Shown: positions 491 to 54,470, counted from the stretch's first letter. The stretch: 64,000 bases of DNA from Vicinamibacteria bacterium (GCA_963764495.1 CAVXSR010000005.1:74206-138205); one strand, 5' to 3'. The notes: generated from the letters alone by a model not told the origin. A program made the numbers and translations.

Positions 491-528
491 GGCGGGGCTT
501 TAGCCCCGCCGGCGTGAGCCCCGCCGGC
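491..528. repeat. family A hairpin (GGCGGGGC-TTTA-GCCCCGCC) plus half copy, in-frame inside a CDS
   Basis: It is a perfect 8 bp stem with a tetraloop and encodes WRRGFSPAGVSPAG. Confidence 0.8.
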
Positions 529-1166
529 AGCCCTTCCATCGCGTTCGCACTCGCTGCCGCACTCTACGTCGGCGCAGCCTGGCGGCTATCACCCGTGCTG
601 CCGAGCGGCGACGAGCCGCACTATCTGGTCATCGCCGAAAGCCTGCTGCGCGACGGCGACTTGCGGATCGAGAACAACCATGCCTCCCGCGGCTACCTTG
701 CATATGTCGACGGCGAGCTGAAGCCCGACTATCTGCGCCGCGGACGCGATGGGCAGATTTACTCGATCCACGCGCCCGGCCTTCCCGCGCTGGTGCTGCC
801 AGCATTCGCCGCTGCTGGTTATCCCGGCGTCGTGTTGTTCCTCGCGCTGCTGAGCGCCGCCGGCGCGGCGCTCGCCTGGCGTGCGGCATTCGAGGTGACG
901 AAGGACGTCGTGGCGGCATGGGTCGGCTGGGCAGCGGTCGCGCTCTCTGCGCCTTTCTTCTTCCAGGCCTTCACTGTCTTCCCTGACGCCCCGGCAGCGG
1001 TCATCGTCATGGGCGTCGTCTACGCGCTCGTCCGCGAAGGCTGGCTCACGTCCGCCGGTCGGCTGGCGATTGTTGGCGCCGCCCTCGCCGCGTTGCCCTG
1101 GCTGCACACGCGGTATGCGCTGATCGCTGCAGCAGCTGGCGTCGTTGTCGCCCTGCGTATCCTCTC

Positions 1167-1240
1167 GTACGTAGGCCCGAGCTTCAGCTCGGGCATCGGC
1201 CCGCGCGGGAGCGCCCAAGCTAAAGCTTGGGCCTACGTAC
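1167..1240. repeat. family A MITE-like composite (two hairpins, termini GTACGTAGGCCC/GGGCCTACGTAC), in-frame inside a CDS
   Basis: It contains the hairpins gcccgagcTTCAgctcgggc and gcccaagcTAAAgcttgggc. The architecture matches 14712-14790. Confidence 0.85.
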
Positions 1241-2834
1241 GCGTGCTCGCATTCATCGCCATCCCGCTCATCAGCGCCGCCGCGTGGCTGCTGCTCTTCA
1301 ACCAGATCTACGGCACCCTCGATCCCCGCGCGCCGTACAGGCGGCTCGCCCGAGATGCGGCTGGCGCGAATTCCAATCGGGCTCACGGGACTGTTCATCG
1401 ATCAGCAATTCGGCCTACTGCCGAACGCACCTGTCTACCTCGTCGCGCTGGGCTCATTCGTCTCATTCGCACGGCAGCAGCGTCGCCTCGCCATCGAGAT
1501 GCTCGCGATCGCGACGCCTTACGTGATCGCGGTGGCCGCGTTTCACATGTGGTGGGCCGGCTTGAGCTCTCCCACCCGCTTCCTCGTCCCCATGCTGCTG
1601 CCGATGGCTGTGCCGATGGCTGTGTGCTGGCGGCGGCAGGCAAGCGCCGCTGGTCGAGCCGCGATGTTGGCGCTCGTGGCCGCTAGCGTCGGGATTACCG
1701 CCGCGCTGACCTGCGCGGGCGATGGCAGCCTGCTTTACAACACGCGCGACGGATACGCCCGCTGGCTCGATTGGATCGCGCCGGCGGTGAATCTGGCGCA
1801 CGCGCTTCCGAGCCTGTTTCAGGGCGGTGTCGCCACAGCCTGGGCACAGGCCGCGATGTGGTGCGCCGCGCTCGCTGCCGGATGGTATGGGCTCCGAATC
1901 CTCGAACGCCGATCCGTCTCGTCCTTCCTGGCAGTGCCGCTCGTCGCGATTGCGGTGGCGTCTCTCGGCGCGAGCGGCGGCTGGACGGTCTCGGGGCATA
2001 CGGCGATCGAGCCAGGATCGAGCGCGGTCGCAATGTTGCGCACCGCATGCGGCCGCGATCGGGCGCTCGTTCGTGTCGCGCCGTTCGCGTGGTCGGTGTC
2101 GCGACGTGACGATGCGGCCTTTGGCGTCCAGGACGCAGGTCGCAGGCCGATGGCGGCCGGTGGTCCGATCTGGACAGGTCGCGACATGCCGCCTGGCCGC
2201 TATCGGGTGCTTCTCGACACCGGGCTCAACGTCACAGGCGAGCTGACGATCGCGCTGGGGAAGCCGGATGCGACGCTTCAGCAGTGTGCCTTCGCCGAGC
2301 ATCGACCCGGCACCACCGACTGCATCGTCGATCTGCCCGCCGGCGCGACCTGGCTGTGGATGACACCGGACTCCGCGATGCGCGCGTCGATTGAAGGGCT
2401 GCGGCTTCAACCGATCTCGCAGGACAGGTCCGACATGTGTGCGCTCAGAGCCGACCGCGCCGTCGTGACACCGGCAGGCGTGATGTTTGCGGAGAAGGGA
2501 AGCGTGTATGCCGAGCCGGCTGGACTGTGGGTCATCGGTGGAAGGATGGCGAGGCTCACCATTCGGCCACGCGAGCAGGGAAATCTGGTCCTGCGGAACG
2601 GTCCGACCGCGAACCTCGTTCGCGTCGCAACCCGAGCGTCGGACGAAGAGCATCGTCTTGCGCCAGGCGAGCTCATAACCATTCGGTTATATACCCCCCC
2701 GGCTGGAGGCGTGCTCCCGGTCACCATCGCCAGCGCCGCCGGCGTCAGGCCGGCGGACCTGGAAGCGGGAAATCGCGACTTGCGGGTGCTAGGCGTGTGG
2801 GTGGAACTGCGGTCAAGGAAGCAATGACTAACAG

Positions 2835-2892
2835 CAGGAGGGCCCGACTTCAGTCGGGCCTTCGGTCGCCGCACTGAAGTGCGGACCTACTG
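2835..2892. repeat. family A hairpin dimer (CAGGAGGG..ACCTACTG)
   Basis: It contains the hairpins ggcccgacTTCAgtcgggcc and ccgcacTGAAgtgcgg and lies between convergent stop codons. Confidence 0.85.
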
Positions 2893-4558
2893 CGGTCCAA
2901 CGTCGCGAATCTTGAAAATCGTGATGTCGCCCCAACTCGCACGCACGTCGAGCTCCCTGGAGTCGTCGACGAGCGCGAGCTGGCGCTGTCCTTTCCGGCG
3001 CGCAAATTCCGATCGGTGCAGCACGACTGTGGTCACGCCCTTCGAGCGCAGCCACGCAAACGACTCGGAGTCGGGGAAGCCGTTCAGCGTCCTGGCGGTG
3101 ACGCCGTAGCCGGGCGGCACGAAGCCGCTGTAGCCGTTCACCAGTGGTTTCCAGTGGCTGGTGGCGTTGACCATGTAGCGGGCGTTTCTGGAAACTCCAG
3201 GTCGCCCATAGATCGGCAACTCCAGGACCGCCACGTGTTCCGGACTTTGCAGCACGTCGTAGATCGACGGGATCCCCTCGAACGGCGAGTACCACATGGG
3301 GGCGCGGAGCGCTTCAACGTTCACCAGGACGATCAGCGCGCCGGCGACGACAGGCCACCGGCGATCGCTGACCCATCGCCCCCGCAGCGCGACCATGCCG
3401 GCTGCCGCCAGCAGACCGAGGCCGATCATCGCGATTTGTCCGGCCCGCGCGTAGGCGCGAATCGCCCCCAGCCCGGGCAGGTGCGCGTGCGCCCATTCGA
3501 ACCCAGGCAGCCGCGGCGCCACCGACAGGAAGACGGCGCCCACCACGATCGCCGTCGCCATGCGCACGTAACGTTCCATCGGCGTGGACGGCGAGCGCCT
3601 GGCTCGCCAGGCCCAGGCGACTCCTGCGATCGCCAAGGCCAGCGCCACGATCCCCGGGAAGTTGGCCTCGGCGCTCTTGTCGAACAAGTGGCTCCAGAGC
3701 CCGTAATGCACGCGCGCGCCGGTATAGAGGTAGTCCGTCCACGTCGACGAAAATTGCCGCGACTCGTCAACCCTGCGAGTCAGGCCGTATTCGTTCGAGA
3801 GCAGATAGTAGGGATGGAGCACTGGCGCAAGCAGGAGCGCCGCAACCGCCGCGGCGACGATCAGCAGGGCGGCGACCCGCCAGCGGCCCGGCCCGAACCA
3901 GTCCTTCACGCGAACGCTCGCCGCACAGAGGAGCGCCCACGCGGCGAAGATCAGCGCGTAAATCGACGCGAACGCCTGGAACGCCACCGCCGCGCCGAGC
4001 AGGACCGCGTGCGTGAGGCGACGCTGCTCGAGCAGTCGATCGAATGCGAACAGGGCGAGCGGCAGGAACTCGAGATGCTGCGCCTGGATGTGCGGCAGGC
4101 GCACGAGCGACTGCGCGTTGAACGCCGCAATCGACCCACCCACGACAGCGGCGGGCAGGCTGCCCGTCATGCGCAGGGCCAGGAGCGACGCCGCCCATCC
4201 CGTCAGCGCGAAACCGGCGAGGAGAACGAGGTTGTAGGCCAGCACCGGCGATCCGCCAAGGCGAATCACCGGGATTGCCAGCGCGCCCTGGACGATCAGC
4301 GGCTCGGAGTAGGCGAGTGTGCGCTTTTCCGGGTAGAAGATGCCGGCGTCGAAGAGGTGCCGGGGATCGAGTCGGCAGCGTGCGTGCGACCCACGCCATC
4401 GCCCACGTGTTCAGTTGCGCGTCAGCAGTATCGAGCCGGGAATAATACGAAGGCGCGGACGCGAGCGGCCAGGTATGGACGACCGCGAGTACGGCGAAAA
4501 CTGCAAGCAGCGTCAGGCGCGGAAAGCGGAGCTCGGACACCGCGCCGGTCTCTGTCAC
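2887..4558 (-). pseudogene. polytopic membrane protein, PMT_2/GT-C-like putative glycosyltransferase; frame broken by one extra base
   Basis: ORFs 3767..4558 and 2887..4269 join as MTETG..NTWAMAWVARTLPT|DPRHLFDAGIFYPEKRTLAYSEPLIVQGALAIPVIRLGG.., with an extra base at about 4369. The N-terminal half is multi-TM. The TAG stop lies in a repeat terminus. Confidence 0.55.
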
Positions 4559-4578
4559 GGGATTGTCGGCCGTGTCGT

Positions 4579-5406
4579 TTAGAACCGGACGACGCCGGTG
4601 AAGTAGAGGCCCTTCAAGGTGAGATCGCCGGTGTCGAGCTTGGCGAGATAGCTGGCGTCGAGCCAGCGATAGCCGCCCTGGACGCCGACGTTGTCCGTGA
4701 AGTTGAACGTCCCGTAGATGTCGACGTCGATGAACTGCCCCTCGTATTCGTCGATCTCAGGCACATTCAGCCCGGTGACTTCACCGGTAATCGAGAACTG
4801 CTTCGCTGGATATGCGCGGATCACGCCGCCGATTCCGGGGATGGGGCCCTTGGCCTCGGTGAACTCGCTGTCGATCGGGCTGTCCAGCTGCAGCTGCGCC
4901 TTCGTCTGGCGCACTTCAAGGATGAATCCCGCATAGAAACGGTCCGTGTAGACGAAGTCGTATTCATAGCCAACGCGCCAGGTGTCCCATTCGAACTGAC
5001 TCTGCACTGGCAGGCCGGCGTTGAACTCGATGCCGTTGAACACGAGCGAGCGGTTCAGGATCGTGTCGCCTTCGAACTTGACCGGGATGTACTCGATGCG
5101 GAACTTGTGCTTCCTGCCAGGACGCAGCACCAGGCGAAACTGACGGATGGCCTCGTCCGTGTACCCCAGATCCGACTTGACGTCGATCTCCGAGCCGATG
5201 ATGCCGAGCTGCTCGCTCGAAATGGTCGCCTCGAGATCCGGATGCCAGAACCCGTAGGAAACCTCGACGTGGTACTTCTCGCCGGTCGCCGGATCGTTCA
5301 TCGTCGGGCGCCCGTACTGCGCCGCGGCCGGGATCGTCGCCGCCAGCCAGAGAAGCATGGAGCCCGCTGCCACGGCGGCAGCGCGCCGCAAAACAAACGT
5401 ATGCAT
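4579..5406 (-). CDS. outer-membrane beta-barrel protein
   Basis: It has a signal peptide (..WLAATIPAAAQ), an alternating amphipathic strand pattern and a C-terminal aromatic residue (..YFTGVVRF). Confidence 0.6.
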   Translation of the reverse strand: MHTFVLRRAAAVAAGSMLLWLAATIPAAAQYGRPTMNDPATGEKYHVEVSYGFWHPDLEATISSEQLGIIGSEIDVKSDLGYTDEAIRQFRLVLRPGRKHKFRIEYIPVKFEGDTILNRSLVFNGIEFNAGLPVQSQFEWDTWRVGYEYDFVYTDRFYAGFILEVRQTKAQLQLDSPIDSEFTEAKGPIPGIGGVIRAYPAKQFSITGEVTGLNVPEIDEYEGQFIDVDIYGTFNFTDNVGVQGGYRWLDASYLAKLDTGDLTLKGLYFTGVVRF

Positions 5407-5576: not shown

Positions 5577-5582
5577 CGGACG

Positions 5583-7388
5583 ATGTCCCCGTCGGGGGCG
5601 GGACAGGCTCCGTACCGGCGCCTCCTGCCGTACTTCTCTCGTCACCGCCGCACGGTCGCGCTCGGCTTCGGCTGCATCCTCGCGACGACGGCCATTCAGG
5701 TGCTTGCACCCTGGGTGCTGAAGTTCGCGGTGGACGATTTGTCCACACGCGTCACGCGCGGCAAACTCGGCTTGTACGCGGCGGTGCTGTTCGCGATCTC
5801 CGCCGCGGGCGGCGTGTTCCGCTTCCTGATGCGCCGCATCATCATCGGTGTCTCGCGCGAGATCGAGTACGACCTGCGCAACGCCTTCTTCGCGCACCTG
5901 CAGCGGCTGCCGCCCGAATACTTCCGGCGGCACCGCACCGGCGACCTGATGTCGCGCGCGACGAACGACCTGAACGCCGTCCGGATGATGGCCGGCCCGT
6001 CGATCATGTACGCGTCGCAGACGACGCTCGTCTTCGTCGTCGCGATCATCCTGATGCTGTCAATCGATCCGCGGCTGACGCTGATCGGTCTGCTGCCGCT
6101 GCCGCTCGTGTCGGTCTCGGTGAAGGTGTTCGGCGCCGCCATCCATCGCCGGTTCGAGCGCATCCAGGCGCAGCTCTCCGAGCTCAGCGCAGTGGCGCAG
6201 GAGAACCTGTCAGGCGTGCGCGTCGTCCGCGCCTACGGCCAGGAGTCGGCGGAGCTGGCGCGCTTCCGCGCCGCCAACGAGGAGTACATCGCGCGCAATC
6301 GCGGCCTGATTCGGCTGCAGGGCGCGTTCTATCCGAGCATGACGCTGCTGCTCGGCTTTGGCGCGCTGCTCGTGCTGTGGCAGGGCAGCCGCGACGTCAT
6401 CCAGGGGCGGATCAGCGTCGGGGAACTGGTGGCGTTCAACGCGTACCTGGTGATGCTGGCCTGGCCGATGATCGCGTTCGGCTGGGTGACGAACATGCTG
6501 CAGCGCGGTATGGCGTCGTGGAAGCGGATGCTCGAGATCCTCGACGAGGCACCGAGCATTGCGGATCCCGTCCATCCGGTCGCGGTCGACGCGCTGTCGG
6601 TCCGCGGCCTGGTCGAGGTGCGAGATCTGACCTTCACGTACGACACAACCGCGGTGCTCCGCGACATCAGCGTCGTCGTCCAGCCCGGGCAGACCGCGGC
6701 GATCGTCGGGGCGACCGGCAGCGGCAAGTCCACCCTGCTGCAGCTGCTGTCGCGGCTGCTCGATCCGCCGGCCGGCACGGTGTTCATCGACGGCGTGGAC
6801 ATCCGCGACATCCCGCTCGTCACGCTGCGCCGCATCGTCGGCGTCGCGCCGCAGGAACCGTTCCTCTTCTCGGACACGCTCGCGGCCAATATCGCGTTTG
6901 CCCCCGAGGTCGCCGCGCTGCCGCCGGACCGGCGCCGGGAAGTGGTGGAACAGTCGGCCGCGATGGCGCGGCTCGACAAAGATATCGTCGATTTTCCCAA
7001 GGGCTTCGACACTGTCGTCGGCGAACGCGGTATCACGCTGTCGGGCGGACAGAAGCAGCGCACGGCGCTGGCGCGTGCGGTCGCGATGGACCCGCGCGTG
7101 CTGGTGCTGGACGACGCGTTGTCGGCGGTGGATACCTACACGGAGGAAGAGATCCTGCAGCGGCTGAAGCAGGTGCGGCGCGGCCGGACGTGCCTGATCG
7201 TCGCGCACCGCGTCTCGACCGTCCGTGATGCGGACGTGATCTTCGTCCTCGACCAGGGGCGCATTGTCGAGCGCGGATCGCACGCCGAGCTCGTCGCGCA
7301 CGGCGGCGTGTACGCGGAGCTGAACCGCAAGCAATTGCTGGAAGAAGAGCTGGAAGCGATAGAAGAAGACGATGCGGTCGCGCCATGA
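5583..7388 (+). CDS. ABC transporter, fused permease/ATPase (MdlA/MsbA-type exporter)
   Basis: The N-terminal half is TM-rich. It has Walker A GATGSGKST, signature LSGGQKQR and Walker B VLVLDDALSAVD. ATG 5583 (MSPSGAGQAPYRRLLPYF) is preferred over the upstream ATG at 5481. Confidence 0.85.
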   Translation: MSPSGAGQAPYRRLLPYFSRHRRTVALGFGCILATTAIQVLAPWVLKFAVDDLSTRVTRGKLGLYAAVLFAISAAGGVFRFLMRRIIIGVSREIEYDLRNAFFAHLQRLPPEYFRRHRTGDLMSRATNDLNAVRMMAGPSIMYASQTTLVFVVAIILMLSIDPRLTLIGLLPLPLVSVSVKVFGAAIHRRFERIQAQLSELSAVAQENLSGVRVVRAYGQESAELARFRAANEEYIARNRGLIRLQGAFYPSMTLLLGFGALLVLWQGSRDVIQGRISVGELVAFNAYLVMLAWPMIAFGWVTNMLQRGMASWKRMLEILDEAPSIADPVHPVAVDALSVRGLVEVRDLTFTYDTTAVLRDISVVVQPGQTAAIVGATGSGKSTLLQLLSRLLDPPAGTVFIDGVDIRDIPLVTLRRIVGVAPQEPFLFSDTLAANIAFAPEVAALPPDRRREVVEQSAAMARLDKDIVDFPKGFDTVVGERGITLSGGQKQRTALARAVAMDPRVLVLDDALSAVDTYTEEEILQRLKQVRRGRTCLIVAHRVSTVRDADVIFVLDQGRIVERGSHAELVAHGGVYAELNRKQLLEEELEAIEEDDAVAP

Positions 7389-7394
7389 CGTTAT

Positions 7395-7506
7395 GCCCAA
7401 GCTAAAGCTTGGGCCTACGTACGACTGGGCATTGTCACCACAGTACGTAGGCCCGAGCTTTAGCTCGGGCATCATTCGGCCGCACTGAAGTGCGGCCCTA
7501 CTGCAG
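7395..7506. repeat. family A cluster (three hairpins)
   Basis: The hairpins are at 7395-7414, 7451-7470 and 7478-7497, followed by the terminus CTACTGCAG. Confidence 0.85.
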
Positions 7507-9306: not shown

Positions 9307-9406
9307 GGCGCATGCGCGCATGGGCGCATGGGATCTCCTATGCATCCGACAGGATGCACCCGCGCACCCTCCCTATGCGCCCATGCCCCCGTGCGCCCAT
9401 GCGCCT
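9304..9406. repeat. family B long hairpin (arms of CATGSGCG-type units)
   Basis: TAAGGCGCATGCGCGCATGGGCGCATGGG pairs with CCCATGCCCCCGTGCGCCCATGCGCCT. The central hairpin is TGCATCC-gac-aGGATGCA. It starts at the mdlB-like TAA. Confidence 0.75.
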
Positions 9407-9454
9407 CTCCTGTATGCTTATCCCGCCAATTCTTCGCCCTCCCGAGGTGTCTGA

Positions 9455-10381
9455 ATGGATCTACACAAGTTTGCGAAGCCGTTCCGGATTGACGATGGCA
9501 AGAAGTTCCGGTTGAAGGACATCAGCCCGACCGACACGCGCGGCATCAAGTCGAAGGCGCGGGCGCTGGAGATGCTGCAGCAGGGCATCGATCGGCTGCG
9601 TCAACTGCAGGATCGGCTCTACGCGCAGGACTGCTGGTCGGTGCTGCTGATCTTCCAGGCGATGGACGCCGCGGGGAAGGACGGCACGATCAAGCACGTG
9701 ATGTCGGGGATCAACCCGCAGGGCTGCCAGGTGTTCTCGTTCAAGGCGCCAAGCAACGAGGAGCTCGATCACGACTACCTGTGGCGCGCGGTGCGCGCGC
9801 TGCCCGAGCGCGGCCGCATCGGCATCTTCAACCGCTCGTATTACGAGGAAGTGCTCGTCGTCAAAGTGCACGAAGAGATCCTGAAGTCGCAGAAGCTGCC
9901 GCCGCCGCTCATCACCAAGGACGTCTGGCGTGAGCGGTACGAAGACATGCACAACTTCGAGCGCTATCTCACGCGCAACGGCGTCATCATCCGCAAGTTC
10001 TTTCTCCATGTCTCGAAGGAGGAGCAGCGCCAGCGCTTTTTGACCCGCCTGCGCGAGTCGGACAGGAACTGGAAGTTCTCGATGGCCGACGCGAAGGAGC
10101 GGAACTGCTGGGACGCGTATCAGGAAGCCTACGAGGACGCCATCCGTCACACGGCGTCAGACCACGCGCCCTGGTACGTCGTGCCAGCCGATCACAAATG
10201 GTTCACGCGGATGGTCGTGTCGGCCGCAGTCGTCGACGCACTCGAAGAGCTCGATCTGACCTATCCTGTCGTCGACGCGCACAAGCGCGAAGAATTGAAG
10301 CTGGTGCAGACGGAGCTTGAGAAGGAAGGGCCGGCGAAGGAAAAGAAGGAGAAGAAGGGGAAGAAGAAAGCGGAGCAGTAG
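9455..10381 (+). CDS. ppk2: polyphosphate kinase 2 (PPK2) family, single-domain polyphosphate:nucleotide phosphotransferase
   Basis: It contains ..LLIFQAMDAAGKDGTIKHV.., FNRSYYEEVLVVKVH and a Lys-rich tail. A GAGGTG SD precedes the start. The TAG stop lies inside repeat terminus CAGTAGGG. Confidence 0.8.
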   Translation: MDLHKFAKPFRIDDGKKFRLKDISPTDTRGIKSKARALEMLQQGIDRLRQLQDRLYAQDCWSVLLIFQAMDAAGKDGTIKHVMSGINPQGCQVFSFKAPSNEELDHDYLWRAVRALPERGRIGIFNRSYYEEVLVVKVHEEILKSQKLPPPLITKDVWRERYEDMHNFERYLTRNGVIIRKFFLHVSKEEQRQRFLTRLRESDRNWKFSMADAKERNCWDAYQEAYEDAIRHTASDHAPWYVVPADHKWFTRMVVSAAVVDALEELDLTYPVVDAHKREELKLVQTELEKEGPAKEKKEKKGKKKAEQ

Positions 10382-10435
10382 GGCGCGACTTTAGTCGCGC
10401 CTGACGTCAGGCCGCACTAAAGTGCGGCCCTACTG
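10376..10435. repeat. family A hairpin dimer (CAGTAGGG..CCCTACTG)
   Basis: It contains the hairpins ggcgcgacTTTAgtcgcgcc and ggccgcacTAAAgtgcggcc. Both termini carry the TAG stops of the convergent flanking genes. Confidence 0.9.
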
Positions 10436-10978
10436 CAGTGGCGCTGGTGTCGGGGGTGGGGGCTGCGGCGCCGGTTGTTGCTGCGCGGCGGCTTCTCTGC
10501 GGCGGAACAGGCGATCGATCAGGCTCGGCGCGCTCTGCGCAGGACTCCACCCCAGTCGCAGCACATTCAGGCGTACGCTGGCGCGGCCGAAGCGCAGCGC
10601 CTCGTGGCAGCTCCACATATAGAGATCCACGTGCCGGCCCTGCACCCGCGGCCCCGTGTCCATCACGGTGTAGACGCCGTCATAGTGCGACCCCGGCGCG
10701 TCCACTTCGAGGACCGATCCCACGGGCAGCAGGTCCGGGTCGGCGGCCGCAATGCCGGACCGCACGTTCACGCCCGACGCCGTCGTGCTGCCCTTGCAGT
10801 AGGCGGTCGCAGAGAAGAGCAGGCGGGAGCCCGGCTTCGGCGGCGGCTGCGGATCGACTTCGCTCTGCTTCGCGGCGAAGCGGGAATCCAATATCGTTTC
10901 CTCATACAGCCACACCAAGCCCCCGACGACGAAGAGCGTCGCCAGGGCTTTGCGCCAGTGGGAGTTTGCGAGGATCAC
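10430..10978 (-). CDS. 3D-domain (MltA/RlpA-like double-psi barrel) protein with N-terminal TM anchor and Pro-rich tail
   Basis: It contains ..FSATAYCKGSTTASGVNVRSGIAAADPDLLPVGSVLEV..GVYTVMDTGPRVQGRHVDLYM.. . The stop codon lies in repeat terminus CCCTACTG. Confidence 0.65.
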   Translation of the reverse strand: MILANSHWRKALATLFVVGGLVWLYEETILDSRFAAKQSEVDPQPPPKPGSRLLFSATAYCKGSTTASGVNVRSGIAAADPDLLPVGSVLEVDAPGSHYDGVYTVMDTGPRVQGRHVDLYMWSCHEALRFGRASVRLNVLRLGWSPAQSAPSLIDRLFRRREAAAQQQPAPQPPPPTPAPLQ

Positions 10979-10983: not shown

Positions 10984-11095
10984 GCGGGGCTAAAGCCCCG
11001 CCTCCACGTTGACGGCCGGGCTAAAGCCCGCCTCCATTGAGGGCCGGGCTAAAGCCCAGCCTCCGCATCGACGACAGACTGAAGCCCCACCTCAC
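10984..11095. repeat. tandem array of four family A units (GGGCTAAAGCCC-GCCTCCAC type)
   Basis: Units start at about 10984, 11015, 11043 and 11075, with progressive degeneration. Confidence 0.75.
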
Positions 11096-13799: not shown

Positions 13800-14003
13800 A
13801 GCAGGAGATGGCCCCGGCGTGCCGTGTGGGGAGGTCGTTTGAACCTGCGAAAGCAGGTGGAACCGCTGTTTGAAAACCGCCCGTCAGGCTTCCTCGCGGC
13901 GGAGGCGTGCACACGGGGCGGCGTCGCGATTCACTTGGGTCTAGCGTTGGCTCAAGCGACTCTCCTGAGCCATCACGAGCACCCCAGGGCCGTTCCTATT
14001 CTA
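13800..14003 (-). ncRNA. ssrS: candidate 6S RNA
   Basis: It lies in a 375 bp ORF-free gap directly downstream of zapA on the same strand, which is the E. coli zapA-ssrS arrangement. A closing stem pairs GGCCCUGGGGUG (13991-13980) with CACGCCGGGGCC (13821-13810), giving a 182 nt core. A second stem pairs GGAGAGUCG with CGACCUCC. A hairpin ACCUGC-UUUC-GCAGGU (13858-13843) followed by UCAAA resembles the 3' bubble hairpin of E. coli 6S. Confidence 0.5.
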
Positions 14004-14037
14004 TCGGATCGTCACCGGGCCGAGTTCAGTCCGTGCG

Positions 14038-14057
14038 GGCGGACCTTCAGGTCCGCC
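14038..14057. repeat. family A hairpin just downstream of zapA
   Basis: The hairpin is ggcggaccTTCAggtccgcc. Confidence 0.8.
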
Positions 14058-14711: not shown

Positions 14712-14790
14712 GTACGTAGGCCCGAGCTTTAGCTCGGGCATCAACGATCCGCCCTTCGGCTTGCCCAAGCTAAAGCGTGGGCCTACGTGC
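14712..14790. repeat. family A MITE-like composite (GTACGTAGGCCC..GGGCCTACGTGC)
   Basis: It has the same two hairpins and termini as 1167-1240, with a different 21 nt linker. Confidence 0.85.
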
Positions 14791-14797: not shown

Positions 14798-16912
14798 TTA
14801 ACGCCGCACCGCGCCGTGTGCGTCCGCGAGCGCGGAGACCACTGTGTCCATCGCGGCGTCGACCTCGGCGTCGGTCAGCGTGCGATCGGGCGCCTGGAAG
14901 GTCAGGCGATACGAGAGGCTGACGCGCCCCTCGGGCACGCCCTTGCCCACGTACCGATCGAATTCCGCCAGCCGCACCAGCGTCGCCGGCGCCACCGACC
15001 GAATCGTGCCACGAACGTCGGCGGCGGGCAAGACGTCAGCGACGAGAATCGACAGGTCGCGCACGATTGCGGGGAAGCGCGGCAGCGCGTGTGTGGTCGC
15101 GACGTCCAGCATCGTGACGAGATCGGTGACGGCGTCGAGGTCGAGCTCGGCGAGATACACCTCGTCCTGGCTCGGGATGTCGCGTGACGCGGCAAGCGCA
15201 GGCAGGAGCTGGCCGACGACACCGAACACGCGGGTGGAACCATCGCCCGCATCGGCGAGGATCTCCGCCGTCCGTCCCGGCGACAGGAACGGTCGCGTCG
15301 CCGGCTGGGCCGACAACGTCAACCCCATCGCGGCGCCAAGTTCCTCCACGATGCCTTTCAGGTCGAAGAAGTCGACCGTCCGGGTCCGCTCGCTCCAGTG
15401 CTCGGCGTGGCCGGCGCCGAGCCAGCCCAGGGCGAGCGTGCGCCGCTCGCCGCTCGATTGCAGGAACCGCGTGCCGAGCTCGAACAGGCGGACGTCGCGC
15501 TGACCGTGGCGGCGGTTGTGGCTCAGCGAGTCCACGATGCCGGGCAGGAGCGAAGGCCGCAGCACGGCGAAGGTTTCCGAGAGCGGGTTGGCGATCGCGA
15601 CGCCCTCGCCGGGCTCGCCGAATTCGTCGGCCGACCGCTCGCCGATGAACGAGAACGTCACGCACTCGTTGAAGCCGGCGGCCGTCGCCAGCCGGCGCAG
15701 CGCGCGGTTCTGCTCGAGTCGCTCGTCGGGTCGGGCCGGCGCCTTCAGCACGGGCGGGAACGTCGTCGGCAGCCGGTCGTAGCCGTAGTGGCGGGCAATC
15801 TCTTCGATCAGATCGACGTCGCGGGAGACGTCGATGCGCCATGAGGGCACCGAGACGAGCCAGCTCGAGGGCCCCTGTTCGGCGACCAGGAACCCGAGGC
15901 CGCGAAGAATGCGGCGGATTTCGTCGAGCGCCACCGGCGCGCCGAGGACGTGCGCCGCTCGGTCCGGGTCGAACCGCACAATCGTCGGCGGCCGGACGGC
16001 CGGGCACGCGTCGATCCATCCGGCGCGGATGGTGCCGGCGCCGATCTGCGTAATCAGCGCGCACGCGCGCGCGAGGGCCTCCGAGGCGGCGGCGAAGTCG
16101 GCGCCGCGCTCGAAGCGATACGACGCTTCGGTCGAGAGGCCGAGGCGCTTCGAGGTGCGGCGAATCGACGACGGGAGGAACCAGGCGCTCTCGATCGCGA
16201 TCGTCCTGGTCGCCGCGGACACCTCGCTGTCCCCGCCACCCATGACGCCGGCCAGCGCCTGGGCGCGCGACTTGTCGGCGATCACAAGCATCTCGGGGTC
16301 CAGCGTGCGCTTCTGGCCGTCGAGGGTGGTCAGCGCTTCGCCGGGTCGCGCCGTGCGGATTCGGAGCTCGGAGCCGTCGAGCCTGGCGAGATCGAAGGCG
16401 TGAAGCGGATGCCCGAGCTCGAGCAGCACGTAGTTCGTGATGTCGACGATGTTGCTGATCGAGCGGACGCCGGCGGCGGTCAGGCGCTCGGCGAGCCAGG
16501 TGGGAGACGGGCCGATGGTGACGTCCGCCAGCGCCACGCAGTAGCGCGGGCAGCGGACGGGGTCCTCGATGGTGACAGTCAGCGGGCCCGCTTTCGTCGG
16601 GTCAGGCGCGCCGAGGTCCGCGACCGCGGGCGAACGCAGCGTCGTCCCGTACTTCGTCGCCACCTCGCGCGCGATCCCGATGATGCTGAGACAGTCGGGT
16701 CGATTCGCGGTGATCTCGAAGTCAATTACCGCATCAGGTACGTCGAAATCCGTACCATTGGGGACAGGCACCAAGCCCGGTGGGGCTTCGTACCTGTCCC
16801 CAACCTCGACGGAGGCGACCTCGAAGCCGGCCATGTGGAGATCCTGGGCCAGCGTCGCGATGTCGACCGGGATCTCGACGAGCTCGCGCAGCCACGAGAC
16901 GAGGACCTTCAC
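14798..16912 (-). CDS. pheT: phenylalanine--tRNA ligase beta subunit (short form lacking the N-terminal OB/tRNA-binding domain)
   Basis: GTG 16912 overlaps the pheS TGA (GTGA). The protein begins VKVLVSWLRELVEIPVDIATLAQDLHMAGFEVASVEV and contains ..ITANRPDCLSIIGIAREVA.. . The 902 aa ORF in the track is read-through into pheS. Confidence 0.85.
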   Translation of the reverse strand: MKVLVSWLRELVEIPVDIATLAQDLHMAGFEVASVEVGDRYEAPPGLVPVPNGTDFDVPDAVIDFEITANRPDCLSIIGIAREVATKYGTTLRSPAVADLGAPDPTKAGPLTVTIEDPVRCPRYCVALADVTIGPSPTWLAERLTAAGVRSISNIVDITNYVLLELGHPLHAFDLARLDGSELRIRTARPGEALTTLDGQKRTLDPEMLVIADKSRAQALAGVMGGGDSEVSAATRTIAIESAWFLPSSIRRTSKRLGLSTEASYRFERGADFAAASEALARACALITQIGAGTIRAGWIDACPAVRPPTIVRFDPDRAAHVLGAPVALDEIRRILRGLGFLVAEQGPSSWLVSVPSWRIDVSRDVDLIEEIARHYGYDRLPTTFPPVLKAPARPDERLEQNRALRRLATAAGFNECVTFSFIGERSADEFGEPGEGVAIANPLSETFAVLRPSLLPGIVDSLSHNRRHGQRDVRLFELGTRFLQSSGERRTLALGWLGAGHAEHWSERTRTVDFFDLKGIVEELGAAMGLTLSAQPATRPFLSPGRTAEILADAGDGSTRVFGVVGQLLPALAASRDIPSQDEVYLAELDLDAVTDLVTMLDVATTHALPRFPAIVRDLSILVADVLPAADVRGTIRSVAPATLVRLAEFDRYVGKGVPEGRVSLSYRLTFQAPDRTLTDAEVDAAMDTVVSALADAHGAVRR

Positions 16913-17994
16913 AGCGAGAACTGCTCCAGGAAGCGAAGGTCGTTCTCGTAGAACAGCCGAATGTCCTCGACGCCGTACATCAGCAGCGCGAGCCGCTCGA
17001 TGCCGACGCCGAACGCGAAGCCGGTGATCCGCACCGGGTCGTAGCCGACGGCCTCGAACACCGCGGGATGGACCATGCCGCTGCCGAGGACCTCGATGAA
17101 CCCGGTGCGCTTGCACATCGCGCAGCCGCTGCCCCTGCACTGCTGGCAGCCGATGAAGACGTCGGCGCTCGGTTCGGTGTAGGGGAAGAAGCTGGGACGA
17201 AAGACGACGGGCGTGTCGGCCGTGAACAGCTCGCGCAGGAAGCCGATGATCGTCCCCTTCAGGTCGGCCAACGTGACCCCTTCGCCGACGACGAGCCCTT
17301 CGACCTGCTGGAACATGGGGGTATGGGTGAGGTCGAGGTTGTCGCGGCGATAAACGCGGCCGGGCGCGATGATGCGCACGGGCGGCTCGTGGGTCTCCAT
17401 GTAGCGGATCTGCATCGCCGACGTGTGCGTGCGCAGGAGCGTGGCAGGCTTTTCTCGCGGGGCTGAAGCCCCGCCGCCACTTGCAGTCTGTGCCGGCCGC
17501 GACCACGGCTGCTTCAGGTACAGCGTGTCCTGCATGTCGCGCGCAGGATGCTCCGGCGGCATGTTGAGCGCTTCGAAGTTGTGCCAGTCGTCTTCGGTTT
17601 CCGGGCCGTCGAGGATCTCGTACCCCTGCCTGGCGAAGATGTCTTCGATGCGCGTGCGGAGGGCCGTCAGCGGATGCATCCGCCCGATCGCCGGCCGACG
17701 TCCCGGGAGGGTGACATCCACCGATCCCATCGGCGCGCGCGACGCTTCGAGCGCCGCGCGTTTCTCGTCGAGCGCGGTCTCGATCTCGCGCTTCAGCTCG
17801 TTGGCTTGGCGCCCGAGGATCGGGCGCTCGTCAGCCGGGACGCCGGCGACCTCCTTGAGGAGCGCTGCGACGGCCCCGCCTTTACGACCGAGATAGCGAT
17901 CCCTCAGGACCTTCACATCGGCGTCAGATCTGGCCGTTGCGAGCTCGCCGGCAAACTGCGCTCGCAGCTGTTCGACAGGAGAGGAAGGAGACAC
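16909..17994 (-). CDS. pheS: phenylalanine--tRNA ligase alpha subunit
   Basis: It contains ..MPPEHPARDMQDT..LLRTHTSAMQIRYM..FRPSFFPYTEPS.. and uses a GTG start. A hairpin repeat is embedded in-frame at 17457-17490. Confidence 0.9.
   Translation of the reverse strand: MSPSSPVEQLRAQFAGELATARSDADVKVLRDRYLGRKGGAVAALLKEVAGVPADERPILGRQANELKREIETALDEKRAALEASRAPMGSVDVTLPGRRPAIGRMHPLTALRTRIEDIFARQGYEILDGPETEDDWHNFEALNMPPEHPARDMQDTLYLKQPWSRPAQTASGGGASAPREKPATLLRTHTSAMQIRYMETHEPPVRIIAPGRVYRRDNLDLTHTPMFQQVEGLVVGEGVTLADLKGTIIGFLRELFTADTPVVFRPSFFPYTEPSADVFIGCQQCRGSGCAMCKRTGFIEVLGSGMVHPAVFEAVGYDPVRITGFAFGVGIERLALLMYGVEDIRLFYENDLRFLEQFSL
17457..17490. repeat. family A hairpin plus terminus remnant embedded in pheS
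   Basis: The sequence is gcggggcTGAAgccccgc followed by cgccacttgcagtctg (compare ..ctactgcagtctg at 7498). It encodes ..AQTASGGGASAPRE.. . Confidence 0.7.
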
Positions 17995-18544: not shown

Positions 18545-18561
18545 TGCCTGCTCCCAATTCG

Positions 18562-18723
18562 ACCGAGCTAAAAGCTCGGTCCTACGTACGCTCTTCGTAG
18601 CCCCACGTCGTCTGCAGTAGGGCCCGACTTCCGCCTTCGCCGAGGCTTCGGCGGACCGCCGTAGCTTTAGCGGAGGCTGGTCAGTCGGGCCGGCACTGGC
18701 TGCACTAAAGTGCGGCCCTACTG
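18562..18723. repeat. family A cluster; the dimer at 18615-18723 carries a 51 nt nested insert in a hairpin loop
   Basis: The structure is ggcccgacTT[18631-18681 insert]CAgtcgggcc. It lies between rplT and rpmI. Confidence 0.85.
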
Positions 18724-18740: not shown

Positions 18741-18938
18741 CTATGCGTACGGCAACATCCGCTTCAGCCGATCCTGGTCCTGCTCGGCGACCTGGATGGT
18801 GCCGCGGAGCGACCGCTTCCGCTTGGTCGTCTTGCTGGTCAGGATGTGCCGCTTGAACGCGGACGCCCGACGAAACTTGCCGCCGGCGGATTTCTTGAAC
18901 CGCTTGGCGGCGCCCCGATGTGTCTTCAGCTTCGGCAT
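18741..18938 (-). CDS. rpmI: 50S ribosomal protein L35
   Basis: The protein begins [42 protein letters not shown].. . It lies in the same frame as infC with no intervening stop. Confidence 0.9.
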
Positions 18939-19598
18939 GTTCCCTAACTCTCGTTTCCCGGCGTGTCCGCCGGCGGTTGCGCGCGTCCCGGCGCCCACGC
19001 CGGCCGGTTGCGCAGCTGCCCGACGCGGCGCGTCGGCTGTCCCCTTGGTTCCCTTGCCCGATCGCTGCGCCAGAATCGTGTGCATCTGATTGCCTTCCTG
19101 GCGCGGCGCCGATTCCACGATCGCCGCCTCTCCCAGTTCGCCGATCAGGCGCTCGAGGATGCGGCGGCCGATCTCGGGGTGGGCCATCTCGCGGCCCCGG
19201 AAGAAGATCGTCGCCTTCACCTTGTCGCCGTCGGCGAGGAAGCGCTCGATGTGCTTCTTCTTGAACTGGTAATCGTGCTCGTCCACCTTCGGACGGAACT
19301 TGATTTCCTTGACTTCGATGATCCGCTGGTGCTTCTTCGCCTCGCGCGCGCGCTTCTGCTCCTGGTACTGATACTTCCCGTAATCCATGATCCGGCAGAC
19401 CGGCGGCACGGCGGTGGGGGAGATCTCGACCAGGTCGAGGCCCTTCTGACGAGCGATCGTCAGCGCCTGGGGCGGCGGCATGATGCCCAGCTGCTGCCCC
19501 GCATCGTCGATAACGCGCACTTCGCGCACCCGGATGCGTTCGTTCACGCGCACCCGATCGTCACGTCTGGGGCCTCTCGACCCGCGATCAAAAGCGAT
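18939..19598 (-). CDS. infC: translation initiation factor IF-3 (non-AUG ATC start; no in-frame stop before rpmI)
   Basis: It contains ..[53 protein letters not shown].. . GGGAGG plus 5 nt precedes ATC at 19598. The frame runs on through an Ala/Gly-rich tail into the rpmI ATG. Confidence 0.8.
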
Positions 19599-19626
19599 AA
19601 CTGCCTCCCAGGTTAGCCAGAGCGCC

Positions 19627-21797: not shown

Positions 21798-21826
21798 TGG
21801 AGCGGGGCTTTAGCCCCGCCTCCCAA
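21798..21826. repeat. family A hairpin downstream of hup
   Basis: The sequence is ttggaGCGGGGCTTTAGCCCCGCctccca. Confidence 0.8.
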
Positions 21827-26779: not shown

Positions 26780-26838
26780 CAGCAGGGCGCGACTTCAGTC
26801 GCGCCGAACAATGGCCCGACTGAAGTCGGGCCCTACTG
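26780..26838. repeat. family A hairpin dimer (CAGCAGGG..CCCTACTG)
   Basis: It contains the hairpins ggcgcgacTTCAgtcgcgcc and ggcccgacTGAAgtcgggcc, 5 nt from the nadK stop. Confidence 0.9.
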
Positions 26839-34745: not shown

Positions 34746-36458
<1,713 letters not shown>

Positions 36459-40467: not shown

Positions 40468-40633
40468 GTGGAGGCGGGCCTTCCGCCGTCGCTCGGAAGC
40501 TTCGGCGGACCGCCGTAGCCTTGGCGGAGACTGGTCAGGCCCGCCATCGCGATCGCGGGGCTAAAGTCCCGTCGCCACACCGATATCTGTAGGGTTCGGG
40601 TCCGCCCTGGCGGAGCTAAAGCTCCGCCCTACT
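40468..40633. repeat. family A cluster; the first hairpin carries a 53 nt nested insert in its loop
   Basis: The structure is ggcgggccTT[40483-40535 insert]CAggcccgcc. Further hairpins lie at 40555-40575 and 40609-40628. Confidence 0.85.
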
Positions 40634-45529: not shown

Positions 45530-47082
45530 AGGACGAAGGACGAGGGACGAAGGACGAAGGGGTAGGGGCGCACTGCGTGCGCCCTGGACGAGCCGCGCGC
45601 CGCGTGATGGCGATGGCGCTCGCGCTGGGCGCGCTGCCGGGCGTCGCTTCCGCGCAGGTGACGTCGTGGCCAACGGAGCGGCCGCCGTTGGCGTTACCGG
45701 CACGCGACGTCAAGTTCCCGCCGTACGAGATCCGGACGCTCGCGAACGGCTTGCAGATTGTGGTCGTCCAGCACCATGAGCAACCGGTGGTCACGCTGCG
45801 ACTGCTGGTGCGGGCCGGCGCCTCGTCGGATCCCGACAACAAGCAGGGGACGGCCGTGCTGACGGCGGCGTTGCTCGATCAAGGCACGACCACCAGGTCG
45901 GCCGCCCAGATCGCCGACACGATTGACACGGTGGGCGGTGGTCTCGGCACTGGCGCCGGAACCGATCTGTCGTTCACCAACGTGCTGGTGATGAAGGACA
46001 GCCTCAGACTGGGATTCGAGCTCCTGAGCGACGTCGCGAGAAACCCGGCGTTCAGCCCGGAAGAGCTCGAGCGGCAGCGGCAACAGGCGCTCTCAGGGCT
46101 GAAAGTGAGCTACGAGGATCCGGATTACGTCGCCGGCCTCGTGTTCGATCGGCTGGTCTACGGCTTCCACCCGTACGGCATGCCGAACAACGGCACGCTG
46201 GAATCGTTGCAGTCGATTACGGCGGACGATCTGCGCGCCTTCCATCACGCCCATTACACGCCGAACAATTCGATACTCGCCGTCGTCGGCGACATCGCAC
46301 CGGACGAGGCGTTTGCGGACGCCGAACGTGTGCTCGGCAGCTGGCAACGACGAGCGGTTGCGCCAGTGCCCCAGGCCAAGCCGCCGGATCCAACGCGCCG
46401 TGTCGTGGTCATCAACAAGCCCGATTCGGTTCAGACCGAGCTTCGTGTCGGTCAGCTCGCCATCCCGCGGAAGCATCCCGATTACCTGGCCTATGACCTC
46501 GCCATGAAGATCCTCGGCGGGGAAGGGGCGAACCGGTTGCACCGCGTGCTCCGGTCGGAGCGCGGCCTGACCTACGGCGCGTCAGCCGAGTATCAGGCGC
46601 TCCAGCAGGCCGGCGATTTCGCCGCGGACACGGACACCCGATCCGAGACGACCGCCGAGGCGCTGCGGCTGATTGTCGACGAGATCACGAAGCTGCAGCG
46701 CGAGCGCGTGTCGTCTCGCGAGCTGGCCGATGCGCAGGCCTACCTCGAAGGCAGTTTTCCGCTCACGATCGAGACGCCGGACGCGATCGCCGCGCAGGTG
46801 CTGAACGCCATCTTCTATGGATTGCCCCTGAGCGACATCGAGAACTACCGCGACCTGGTGAACGAGATCACGCCCGACGACATCCAACGCGTCGCACGGC
46901 AGTACCTGAAGCCCGACCGGCTGTCAGTGGTGCTCGTCGGCAACGCCGATGCCTTCGTGAAGGATCTGGCCGGTGTCGGGTTTCCTCAGTACGAACTGGT
47001 CAACTTGCCTGAGCTCGATTTGACCTCCGCGACCCTGCACCGGCGGCCGCGGACGGCGTCAGGGCCTCGCGGCGCACCATAA
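45526..47082 (+). CDS. M16 family peptidase, non-catalytic-type partner (no HxxEH)
   Basis: It contains ..YEIRTLANGLQIVVVQHHEQPVVTLRLLVRAGASSD.. and ..AFHHAHYTPNNSILAVVGD.. . ATG 45526 overlaps the upstream stop. The first ~12 codons are a heptamer-repeat element, so the real start may be the MAMALALG.. Met. Confidence 0.75.
   Translation: MKDEGRGTKDEGVGAHCVRPGRAARRVMAMALALGALPGVASAQVTSWPTERPPLALPARDVKFPPYEIRTLANGLQIVVVQHHEQPVVTLRLLVRAGASSDPDNKQGTAVLTAALLDQGTTTRSAAQIADTIDTVGGGLGTGAGTDLSFTNVLVMKDSLRLGFELLSDVARNPAFSPEELERQRQQALSGLKVSYEDPDYVAGLVFDRLVYGFHPYGMPNNGTLESLQSITADDLRAFHHAHYTPNNSILAVVGDIAPDEAFADAERVLGSWQRRAVAPVPQAKPPDPTRRVVVINKPDSVQTELRVGQLAIPRKHPDYLAYDLAMKILGGEGANRLHRVLRSERGLTYGASAEYQALQQAGDFAADTDTRSETTAEALRLIVDEITKLQRERVSSRELADAQAYLEGSFPLTIETPDAIAAQVLNAIFYGLPLSDIENYRDLVNEITPDDIQRVARQYLKPDRLSVVLVGNADAFVKDLAGVGFPQYELVNLPELDLTSATLHRRPRTASGPRGAP
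45527..45590. repeat. family D (GGACGAA heptamers plus hairpin) at the 5' end of the second M16 gene
   Basis: The sequence reads gaaggac gaaggac gagggac gaaggac gaagggg, then AGGGGCGCAC-tgc-GTGCGCCCT. Confidence 0.65.
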
Positions 47083-48245: not shown

Positions 48246-48288
48246 GAACAGCAGGCCCTTCGACCGGCTCAGGGCAGGGAGGAATTTC

Positions 48289-50578: not shown

Positions 50579-50590
50579 GCCCGGTGATGT

Positions 50591-50650
50591 GGAGGCGGGC
50601 CTTCAGGCCCGCATCTGCCGCTGAAAGCAGGGCTAAAGCCCCGCCTCCAC
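50591..50650. repeat. family A cluster between the OMP gene and thrC
   Basis: It contains gcgggccTTCAggcccgc and ..gggcTAAAgccccgcctccac. The latter contains the thrC stop. Confidence 0.85.
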
Positions 50651-54101: not shown

Positions 54102-54185
54102 CGAGGAAACCGCTATCGTCCACTGGCGTGCGACCAGCCGTCAAGTTTATGCTGTTTACGATTTCATAACATGTCGAAATGACAT

Positions 54186-54214
54186 TTGACCCCCGGAGTT
54201 CGACCTCCTATACT
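54186..54214 (+). promoter_or_regulatory. near-consensus sigma70 promoter for the leader-asd-lysC transcript
   Basis: The sequence is TTGACC-17 nt-TATACT in an AT-rich patch. The leader ATG lies 8 nt after the -10 box. Confidence 0.6.
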
Positions 54215-54222
54215 GGGCGGCA

Positions 54223-54318
54223 ATGTCGCGTGCCGGCACGACCATCGCCATTACCAGCACCACCATGCGAAAGCATGGCGGCCGCGACGGTGGTGTATCC
54301 GGGCTCAACGCGCAATAG
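54223..54318 (+). CDS. Thr/Ile-rich leader peptide (31 aa)
   Basis: The peptide is MSRAGTTIAITSTTMRKHGGRDGGVSGLNAQ*. Five Thr and two Ile codons fall within codons 6-14. It is followed by alternative hairpins and a terminator. Confidence 0.6.
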   Translation: MSRAGTTIAITSTTMRKHGGRDGGVSGLNAQ

Positions 54319-54386
54319 ACAAGCAAGACCGACACGAGCACACAACACCCGCCGACGCGGCACCAGCCGGTCGGCGGTTTTTTTTT
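54258..54386 (+). promoter_or_regulatory. transcription attenuator (regions 1-4)
   Basis: Regions 1:2 pair as CACCACC (54258-64) with GGTGGTG (54289-95). Regions 2:3 pair as GCCGCGACGGTGGTGT (54281-96) with ACACCCGCCGACGCGGC (54345-61). Regions 3:4 pair as CCGCCGAC (54349-56) with GTCGGCGG (54370-77), followed by T9. Confidence 0.6.
54349..54386 (+). terminator. intrinsic terminator of the attenuator
   Basis: An 8 bp GC stem is followed by nine T residues (54378-54386). Confidence 0.7.
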
Positions 54387-54415
54387 GCGCGGACGGTGTC
54401 TGAAGCAGCGTACGT

Positions 54416-54470
54416 CAGTAGGGGCCGACTTCAGTCGGGCCAACGGCCGCACTAAAGTGCGGCCCTACTG
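54416..54470. repeat. family A hairpin dimer (CAGTAGGG..CCCTACTG) between the attenuator and asd
   Basis: It contains the hairpins ggccgacTTCAgtcgggcc and ggccgcacTAAAgtgcggcc. Confidence 0.9.

Follow-up and report, generated by a model that had tools for sequence, protein, structure and literature searches.

The sequence considered here is a 64,000-nucleotide stretch of the genome of a Vicinamibacteria bacterium (GCA_963764495.1, CAVXSR010000005.1:74206-138205; hereafter the window), and its most conspicuous feature is a dense family of short hairpins scattered from position 491 to 54470, which a preliminary description had likened to repetitive extragenic palindromic (REP) sequences and bacterial interspersed mosaic elements (BIMEs). 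The region has a G+C content of 65-69% and carries housekeeping chromosomal genes: pheST, infC-rpmI-rplT, thrS, dnaK, hsp20, groES/EL, lpxD/lpxB, thrC/thrB/hom, asd, lysC and the genes for HU and RNase Y, together with genes for 6S RNA and a tRNA. The gene map is our own and was built from open reading frames (ORFs), third-position G+C and Pfam. The tRNA and the 6S RNA are the sole Rfam matches at gathering score in the window, and no Rfam family matches the hairpins at that score. The strict form of the hairpin pattern in the preliminary description has 9 exact matches as against 0.01 expected, the hairpins number about 30 in all, and all of the coordinates that it had listed were recovered.

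The recurring unit is 24 nt long and polar, with a GTAG head at its 5' end followed by an 8-bp G+C-rich stem enclosing a TTYA tetraloop. Among the perfect tetraloop hairpins of the window with a stem of at least 7 bp, 21 of 32 have a TTTA, TTCA, TAAA or TGAA loop, all 21 are closed by a C:G pair, and every other tetraloop occurs at most twice; the fixed C-TTYA-G loop proposed earlier is thus real. A relaxed census, in which as many as two of the 8 stem pairs could be mismatched, finds 30 sites in the window; those at 7157 and 34356 look like chance matches in coding sequence, without a GTAG head. A covariance model trained on units picked by head and loop alone gives 22 matches in the window at E<0.01, and at E<0.2 it recovers 28 sites from the earlier list, each on a single strand. 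The units fall at 16 sites, with a density of approximately one unit per 2 kb.

The polar head, which the preliminary description had missed, refines its REP-like reading, which otherwise holds. The string GTAG-N8-TTYA occurs 17 times in the window as against 0.34 expected from Markov simulations, and 16 of the 17 occurrences have stems with at least 7 of 8 positions paired; the version with the reversed loop, GTAG-N8-TRAA, occurs once and lacks a stem. For comparison we used 72 related loci (~0.54 Mb), fetched with a REP pattern in which head, loop and outer stem were fixed and three inner stem positions were free to pair or not, and a 21-kb sister locus, L154. In the window and the 72 loci GTAG immediately precedes the stem, with the loop read as TTYA, in 126 of 155 hairpins, and lies on the other side in 2 of 155. 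Conversely, when perfect hairpins with a GTAG head are collected irrespective of the loop (3-8 nt), the loop is TTYA in 14 of 18 and TTTTA in one. Certain heads go with certain stems: the variant GTACGTAGG precedes the stems GCCCGAGC and GCCCAAGC, the variant GCAGTAGGG precedes GGCCGCAC, GGCGCGAC and GGCCCGAC, and the degenerate heads GTGGA or GGAGG accompany GGCGGGGC-type stems; units with degenerate heads such as GCAG, GTGG and GGAGG are a minority. When the loop is read as TTYA the stem is preceded by a polar GTAG head, a feature that places these elements in the known GTAG-REP superfamily (PMC3733652), and we consider it highly probable that they are GTAG-type REPs, many of them in the form of inverted doublets of the kind termed REPINs. 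At 45562-45584 (+), inside an M16 peptidase gene, lies a perfect 8-bp hairpin with a 3-nt TGC loop, GTAG-GGGCGCAC-TGC-GTGCGCCC, which may represent another GTAG-REP family or have arisen by chance.

The stems differ widely in sequence and remain complementary. At least nine were described earlier, and at least nine are confirmed here (GGCGGGGC, GCCCGAGC, GCCCAAGC, GGCCCGAC, GGCCGCAC, GGCGCGAC, GGCGGACC, GGCGGAGC and GGCGGGCC). We checked the proposal that their changes are compensatory on an alignment of 68 units (48 distinct) chosen on GTAG and TTYA alone, leaving out units that match the fetch pattern. Paired cells amount to 89%, as against 63% in column shuffles, with none of 500 shuffles reaching the observed value; cells changed on both sides number 101 as against 33, two-sided changes are present at all 8 stem pairs, and slid registers give pairing of just 26-38%. 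There are 28 distinct stems with at least 7 of 8 pairs. As the units are paralogous copies of a mobile repeat, this covariation shows that the hairpin has been kept in every lineage, and not how many independent compensatory events took place. It is also expected rather than surprising, since alternative complementary stem sub-families are already typical of GTAG REPs (PMC3733652). At one orthologous site, the unit at 10382 and its equivalent in the sister genome differ by an exact compensatory swap of G:C to C:G and by one loop base. Stem mismatches show no excess of G:T over A:C (15 versus 21), and the stems therefore give no pointer to one functional strand or to RNA.

Neighboring units are often paired, with 21 tail-to-tail, 15 head-to-head and 19 head-to-tail pairs in the window and the related loci, and the spacers of tail-to-tail pairs are mostly 3-8 nt. 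In structure predictions doublets give one extended hairpin of the REPIN type, with z-scores ranging from -4.8 to -10.7; the segments 10374-10437 (-26.7 kcal/mol, z -7.4), 1165-1242 (-32.7 kcal/mol, z -6.9) and 7390-7503 all form long hairpins (z -6.9 to -10.7). Inverted partners have unlike stems in 35 of 36 cases, so that the doublets are largely imperfect hairpins. We do not claim a "heterodimer rule" on this basis, as random pairing from so diverse a stem pool predicts nearly this number of unlike pairs. The doublets join different stems across spacers of 3-36 nt and variable sequence, and a conserved linker was not seen in them. The class with GTACGTAGG heads pairs GCCCGAGC with GCCCAAGC repeatedly, namely in the window, in two related loci (L019 and L039) and in L154, and because of this recurrence the sequences suggest that the GCCCGAGC/GCCCAAGC doublet propagates as a unit.

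Two kinds of higher-order arrangement had been described earlier, dimers bounded by CAGYAGGG...CCCTACTG and longer composites ended by GTACGTAGGCCC; both are present where they were reported, but the designation of the latter as "MITE-like" (miniature inverted-repeat transposable elements) is not supported. Under that interpretation the 55-80-bp composites would be deletion derivatives of an insertion sequence (IS), moved by a DDE transposase recognizing GTACGTAGGCCC or CAGTAGGG as terminal inverted repeats. It draws on the perfect terminal inverted repeats of composites at three or four sites, with paired stems GCCCGAGC and GCCCAAGC, and on the presence of similar composites in related genomes. 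Yet element ends, which were judged by eye and not computed, display neither target-site duplications nor IS-type terminal repeats beyond the REPs themselves, and no flanking direct repeats were seen at class A or class B composites, for which reason the MITE proposal lacks support and was rejected. Moreover, the arm spacers differ in length and sequence (18, 23 and 36 nt), doublets are no commoner than single units and tandem arrays, the supposed terminal repeat is a REP unit with its GTAG head, and no IS or transposase family was detected in the ~60 ORFs of the window. We regard a MITE origin as very improbable.

Thirteen of the 16 sites are intergenic and three lie in frame within genes. 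Of the gaps on our gene map, REP clusters take up 5 of the 7 convergent, ~7 of the 40 co-directional (including groES-groEL and rpmI-rplT) and 1 of the 7 divergent ones. Tail-to-tail dimers make up a large part of the inventory. Such dimers occupy convergent gaps at 2835..2893 (units 2837-2860 (+) and 2867-2890 (-)), at 10376..10437 (10378-10401 (+) and 10410-10433 (-)) between the PPK2 and 3D-domain genes, and at 26780..26838 (26782-26805 (+), with the head GCAG, and 26813-26836 (-)) between mltG/yceG and the NAD kinase gene; a tail-to-tail pair at 50595..50644 (50595-50612 (+) and 50627-50644 (-)) also lies in a convergent gap. Further dimers of this type are found downstream of pheT at 14712..14790 (14716-14739 (+) and 14763-14786 (-), with GTACGTAGG heads) and in the divergent hom/asd gap at 54416..54470 (54418-54441 (+) and 54445-54468 (-)). 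A head-to-head dimer at 34751..34802 (34751-34774 (-) and 34779-34802 (+)) fills the groES-groEL spacer. Between two ABC-transporter genes a three-unit cluster at 7395..7501 consists of a head-to-head pair (7395-7418 (-) and 7447-7470 (+)) followed by 7478-7501 (-), and at 10984..11090 (-) there is a tandem head-to-tail array with GGAGG-type heads (10984-11001, 11015-11032, 11042-11061 and a degenerate fourth copy). The rpmI-rplT gap contains a cluster at 18561..18721, formed by 18561-18585 (-), a split unit at 18615-18695 (+) and 18698-18721 (-); the first of these has a 5-nt loop. A second cluster with a split unit (40468-40545 (+)), a degenerate copy (~40553-40572) and 40609-40632 (-) takes up a convergent gap at 40468..40632. 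Single units lie at 14037..14057 (+; GGCGGACC-TTCA), between zapA and the 6S RNA gene, and at 21802..21819 (+), between the tRNA gene and the HU gene; in the latter, alone among the copies, the loop and the GGAGG-type head have opposite polarities. The 6S RNA gene itself, downstream of zapA, spans 13807-13993 (-), and the tRNA gene spans 21633-21706 (-); each has a REP unit at most ~100 nt upstream.

The units also supply parts of genes. Four ORFs end on stop codons provided by REPs: the TAG of the GTAG heads at 10379-10381 and 10430-10432 are the stops of the PPK2 and 3D-domain genes, the CTA at 2887-2889 is the TAG stop, again from a GTAG head, of the minus-strand ORF 2887..4269, and the stop of the thrC-like ORF at 50633-50635 is a TAG to which the second unit contributes loop bases and its closing G. 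In light of these four stop codons, REP insertion appears to have reshaped gene 3' ends. The location of G+C-rich hairpins mostly just downstream of genes would also be expected of ordinary Rho-independent terminators that share a loop by chance. However, a run of at least four T within 12 nt on either strand accompanies 0 of 29 units, some units lie within coding sequence and others separate genes that are co-transcribed (groES and groEL), and a GTAG head and a fixed loop sequence are foreign to terminators. Lacking T-runs, the units are not intrinsic terminators; this candidate was rejected, and we attach next to no credence to it.

Two of the three in-frame sites are in gene 115..2827, which encodes a large membrane protein without a Pfam match. 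The single unit at 491..510 (+), with the degenerate head GTGGA (GTGGA-GGCGGGGC-TTTA-GCCCCGCC), encodes WRRGFSPA, and the tail-to-tail dimer with GTACGTAGG heads at 1167..1240 (1171-1194 (+) and 1213-1236 (-), stems GCCCGAGC and GCCCAAGC) encodes SYVGPSFSSGIGPRGSAQAKAWAYV. An alignment of 12 homologues places the latter peptide in a loop. Four proteins (P0008, P0010, P0012 and P0025) have just a few residues in this loop, none recognizably REP-encoded, and other homologues have different REP-encoded peptides there, e.g. WRRGFSPAE...YVGPSFSSG and VGRAFRPG...AGLKPRPTY. The reading frame of the same gene shifts at ~1335-1350, from that of ORF 115..1686 to that of 1355..2827, owing either to a genuine frameshift (pseudogene) or to an error in the assembly, and the gene calls at this locus are also fragmented in L154. 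The third in-frame site is the single unit 17457..17474 (-), which lies inside the catalytic core of PheS (pheS, 16909-17994 (-)) as part of an insertion of ~21 residues; PheS residues 161-184 (KQPWSRPAQTASGGGASAPREKPA, containing ASGGGASAPRE) have no counterpart in solved PheS structures.

The gene context also bears on a different proposal, namely that the hairpin is a structural motif selected by the host without a dedicated transposase, in which a transcribed C-UUYA-G stem-loop or a DNA cruciform would serve the cell as an mRNA 3'-end stabilizer, a processing signal or a protein-binding site, and would spread slowly via recombination, gene conversion or slippage. It can account for units at gene 3' ends and in operons of highly expressed genes (groES-groEL and rpmI-rplT), and it is likewise compatible with the retention of the loop and its closing pair across a phylum. 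On the other hand, a 3'-end role in RNA makes no sense for the in-frame copies in pheS and the membrane-protein gene, an excess of G:U wobbles is seen on neither strand, and a GTAG conserved in both spacing and polarity is the hallmark of REPs recognized by REP-associated tyrosine transposases (RAYTs) (PMC3733652, PMC6006769).

Comparison with a close relative reveals turnover of the units. The sister genome represented by L154 is ~92% identical in nucleotide sequence and syntenic with the window across its first 11 kb, and has 15 covariance-model matches in 21 kb. It has a REP doublet where the window has an unrelated GCGCATG-rich sequence (9308-9441), lacks the window doublet 2835-2893, has extra partial copies in the 7395 cluster, differs in the first unit of the 10376 site and displays local tandem duplications. 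These duplications could be cited in favor of slow spread of a host motif by slippage and the like, but the occurrence of the unit at non-homologous sites with unrelated flanks and the difference in content between genomes that are ~92% identical argue against that proposal. Repeats unrelated to REPs occupy some of the same spacers: the window spacer at 9308-9441 is rich in GCGCATG/GCATGGG, and an AAGTGC-rich inverted repeat lies in L154 (12800-12989) at the position of the 2835 doublet of the window.

In a species-representative genome collection the REP pattern matches more than 71 loci, and nearly all of the matches listed are in metagenome-assembled genomes (MAGs) of Acidobacteriota. Among the matches listed most are Vicinamibacterales/Vicinamibacteria, with some labelled Terriglobales, Terracidiphilus, Solibacteraceae or Ca. 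Acidiferrales; those in MAGs not labelled Vicinamibacteria form perfect hairpins in 20 of 21 cases among the matches listed, as against ~1 in 16 by chance. Eight loci with perfect REP copies (L009, L015, L027, L028, L032, L048, L060 and L066) come from MAGs of 64-71% G+C labelled "uncultured Bifidobacteriaceae", labels that are probably wrong, and the MAG of L020, labelled Acidimicrobiia, has a REP copy too. The unit is nearly absent from viral contigs (5 pattern matches, 2-3 of them real hairpins), and a plasmid collection has no match to the pattern. Taken together, the unit is polar, its stems are free to vary provided that they pair, its copy content differs between close relatives and its distribution is typical of REPs.

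No transposase family is present in the ~60 ORFs of the window, in agreement with the preliminary description. To look for a RAYT we used E. coli RayT and an IS200-like consensus as tblastn queries, and a Y1 hidden Markov model (HMM) built from 120 PF01797 proteins and run on six-frame ORFs, which recovered the E. coli RayT positive control. Several results of this search weigh against the involvement of a RAYT or against the GTAG-REP assignment as such. Neither tblastn nor the HMM found a Y1/RAYT protein in the window, the 72 related loci (~0.54 Mb) or L154. Eighty RAYT loci kept from metagenome contigs in a RAYT alignment scan include none with a GTAG-N8-TTYA hairpin, other GTAG hairpins being found in 2 of the 80; viral contigs furnished 2 weak RAYT loci. 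Protein database searches with RAYT-like queries, one of them biased to G+C-rich composition, gave no match named as acidobacterial, the named matches being from Nitrospira, Deltaproteobacteria, Binatia, Thioalkalivibrio and similar taxa. As the tblastn and HMM searches cover the window, the 72 related loci and L154, it is the GTAG tag by itself that ties the units to a putative RAYT. Some REP superfamilies (the CGTC type) are without an associated transposase (PMC3733652). To the same side of the balance belong the heads of class C, which are GTGGA or GGAGG and not GTAG, and the lack of an excess of G:T over A:C mismatches noted above. The lack of a transposase in ~0.6 Mb and the precedent of the CGTC-type REPs are also what would be predicted if the hairpin were a motif maintained by the host; weighed with the evidence from in-frame copies and turnover, we find that proposal quite unlikely.

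Considering these data as a whole, we favor as the best explanation, and deem likely, that these are GTAG-tagged REP/REPIN units moved in trans by a RAYT encoded elsewhere in the genome; the specific step of mobilization by a RAYT is in our estimation somewhat probable. Based on REP/RAYT and IS200/IS605 biology, the units would act as single-stranded DNA hairpins. An HUH/Y1 transposase of the RAYT (TnpA-REP) type would recognize the 5' GTAG foot and the hairpin shape, with the C-TTYA-G loop probably also forming part of the recognition, and would cut and rejoin the units in trans, being encoded by one or a few genes located elsewhere, such movement taking place without target-site duplication. 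Units at gene 3' ends would be transcribed and might have a secondary role as stable stem-loops, e.g. as a barrier to 3' exonucleases, and in-frame copies in tolerant protein loops would persist as short peptide insertions.

Two units depart from the compact architecture. The features listed earlier as separate hairpins at 18621/18682 and 40473/40536 are real, but each pair is better described as the two arms of a single unit split by an insert of ~52 nt in the loop. At 18615-18695 the unit GTAG-GGCCCGAC...GTCGGGCC is split exactly in the loop as TT|CA by a module at ~18630-18681, and at 40468-40545 the unit GTGGA-GGCGGGCC...GGCCCGCC is split at the same point by a module at ~40484-40535. The insert is near-palindromic (CCGCC..GCTTCGGCGGACCGCCGTAGC..GGCGGAG.CTGGT), and the split REP together with it folds as one extended hairpin. 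The module, with the form CCGCC..GGCGGACCGCC..GGT, is found at TT|YA in eight instances and in REPs with at least 7 different stems, and is non-coding; the further copies are in L016 (~2690-2760), L026 (~6560-6626), L047 (~4740-4800), L063 (~3738), L066 (~2845-2932) and L154 (~10400-10460). It could be either a long-loop variant of the REP or a second small element that targets the exposed REP loop. The loops of E. coli palindromic units (REPs) are insertion sites of IS1397, and ISKpn1 is likewise specific for REP loops; targeting of the loop by the ~52-nt module would resemble the behavior of IS1397. A precedent for a long-loop variant is offered by the GTAG-14 elements of Bradyrhizobium, whose inner loops are self-complementary (PMC3733652). 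The GTAG-14 REPs of Bradyrhizobium and Rhodopseudomonas resemble the split units in this self-complementarity, and in Bradyrhizobium also in having loops with GCGG/CCGC termini, but differ in that their loops are up to 27 bp, as against the ~52 nt of the module, which moreover is situated at the TT|YA of at least 7 stems.

Among the REP/RAYT pairs known from earlier work, every class of REP sequence has a RAYT of its own. It is conceivable, though we rate it as unlikely, that the units form a phylum-wide acidobacterial REP superfamily whose mobilizing enzyme responds to nothing but the GTAG foot and the C-TTYA-G loop, whatever the stem sequence, with TT|YA being also the landing site of the ~52-nt element, or else that the units persist without a RAYT. 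A stem-blind enzyme would allow the stems to diversify freely, and either case would depart from the REP/RAYT pairs that have been studied. Short of confirmation of the loop-targeted module or of a RAYT-less state, the favored explanation, GTAG-tagged units mobilized in trans, calls for no mechanism beyond those already known.

Most work on REPs has been done in Proteobacteria. A dense and clearly polar GTAG-REP family is now documented in Acidobacteriota, a major but poorly studied soil phylum, with one 24-nt architecture common to MAGs labelled Vicinamibacterales, Terriglobales and Solibacteraceae. Recognition of this family accounts for many puzzling features in the annotations of acidobacterial MAGs, among them "conserved" hairpins between genes, ORFs with fused or extended ends, and short inserted peptides. 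The units could be used as a strain-typing marker, and the fixed loop offers a handle for finding the cognate enzyme. Separately, we observed in the window an ORF at 18741-19706 (-) with the Pfam domains of IF3 (infC) and ribosomal protein L35 (rpmI) in one frame, which points to loss of a stop codon, a genuine fusion or a sequencing error.

Judging from the sequences, the units apparently constitute an undescribed family within the REPs, an established kind of small mobile elements of bacteria, and this family is spread through Acidobacteriota. Our literature search retrieved no report combining Vicinamibacter with REPs. The GTAG-tagged REP superfamily comprises 24 families, including the E. 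coli palindromic units, Pseudomonas REPs and the SMAG repeats of Stenotrophomonas (Di Nocera et al. 2013, PMC3733652), and in that survey Acidobacteria appear for Y1 transposases flanked by terminal inverted repeats, not for GTAG REPs. A class 3 Y1 group in Acidobacteria is associated with CnGA-footed hairpins rather than GTAG (Quentin et al. 2018, PMC6006769), and the 2025 RepRanger survey counts generic palindromes in three Acidobacteriota, with no sign of a GTAG-TTYA family in the portions of that survey consulted (PMC12306157).

GTAG REPs have stems of 6-13 bp with short loops, and form complementary-stem sub-families and head-to-head, tail-to-tail and head-to-tail dimers; they favor gaps between convergent or co-directional genes, some have degenerate heads such as GTGG, and some copies are intragenic and in frame, including ones in tRNA synthetase genes (PMC3733652). 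The units of the window share with them the GTAG at one end of the stem, the short loop, the compensatory sub-families, the dimers and clusters, the gap preference, the intragenic copies and the degenerate heads. They differ in the fixed asymmetric C-TTYA-G tetraloop, most loops in the superfamily being 2-3 nt and fitting TY or CMA (PMC3733652), and in that no cognate REPtron was found in the window and related loci. This loop, common to all stem classes, is the distinguishing trait of the family. BIMEs of E. coli are alternating Y and Z units with conserved linkers (e.g. the IHF-binding L motif); the doublets described here do join different stems, but across spacers that vary. The in-frame copies find parallels in the Rickettsia palindromic elements and the intragenic REPs of Opitutus terrae, which, as far as they are described in the survey that cites them, also lie in frame in functional genes, add 7-25 residues and include a tRNA synthetase gene among their targets (cited in PMC3733652); the repeat family and the host are different, and the window has three intragenic sites. 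When compared with the REPIN-RAYT systems (Bertels and Rainey 2011, PMC3116915), the arms of our doublets usually have different stems, many units are single or in tandem and the RAYT partner is putative, but the inverted doublets similarly form one long hairpin, copy content varies between relatives, and the family has deep roots within one phylum, where its inheritance appears to be vertical.

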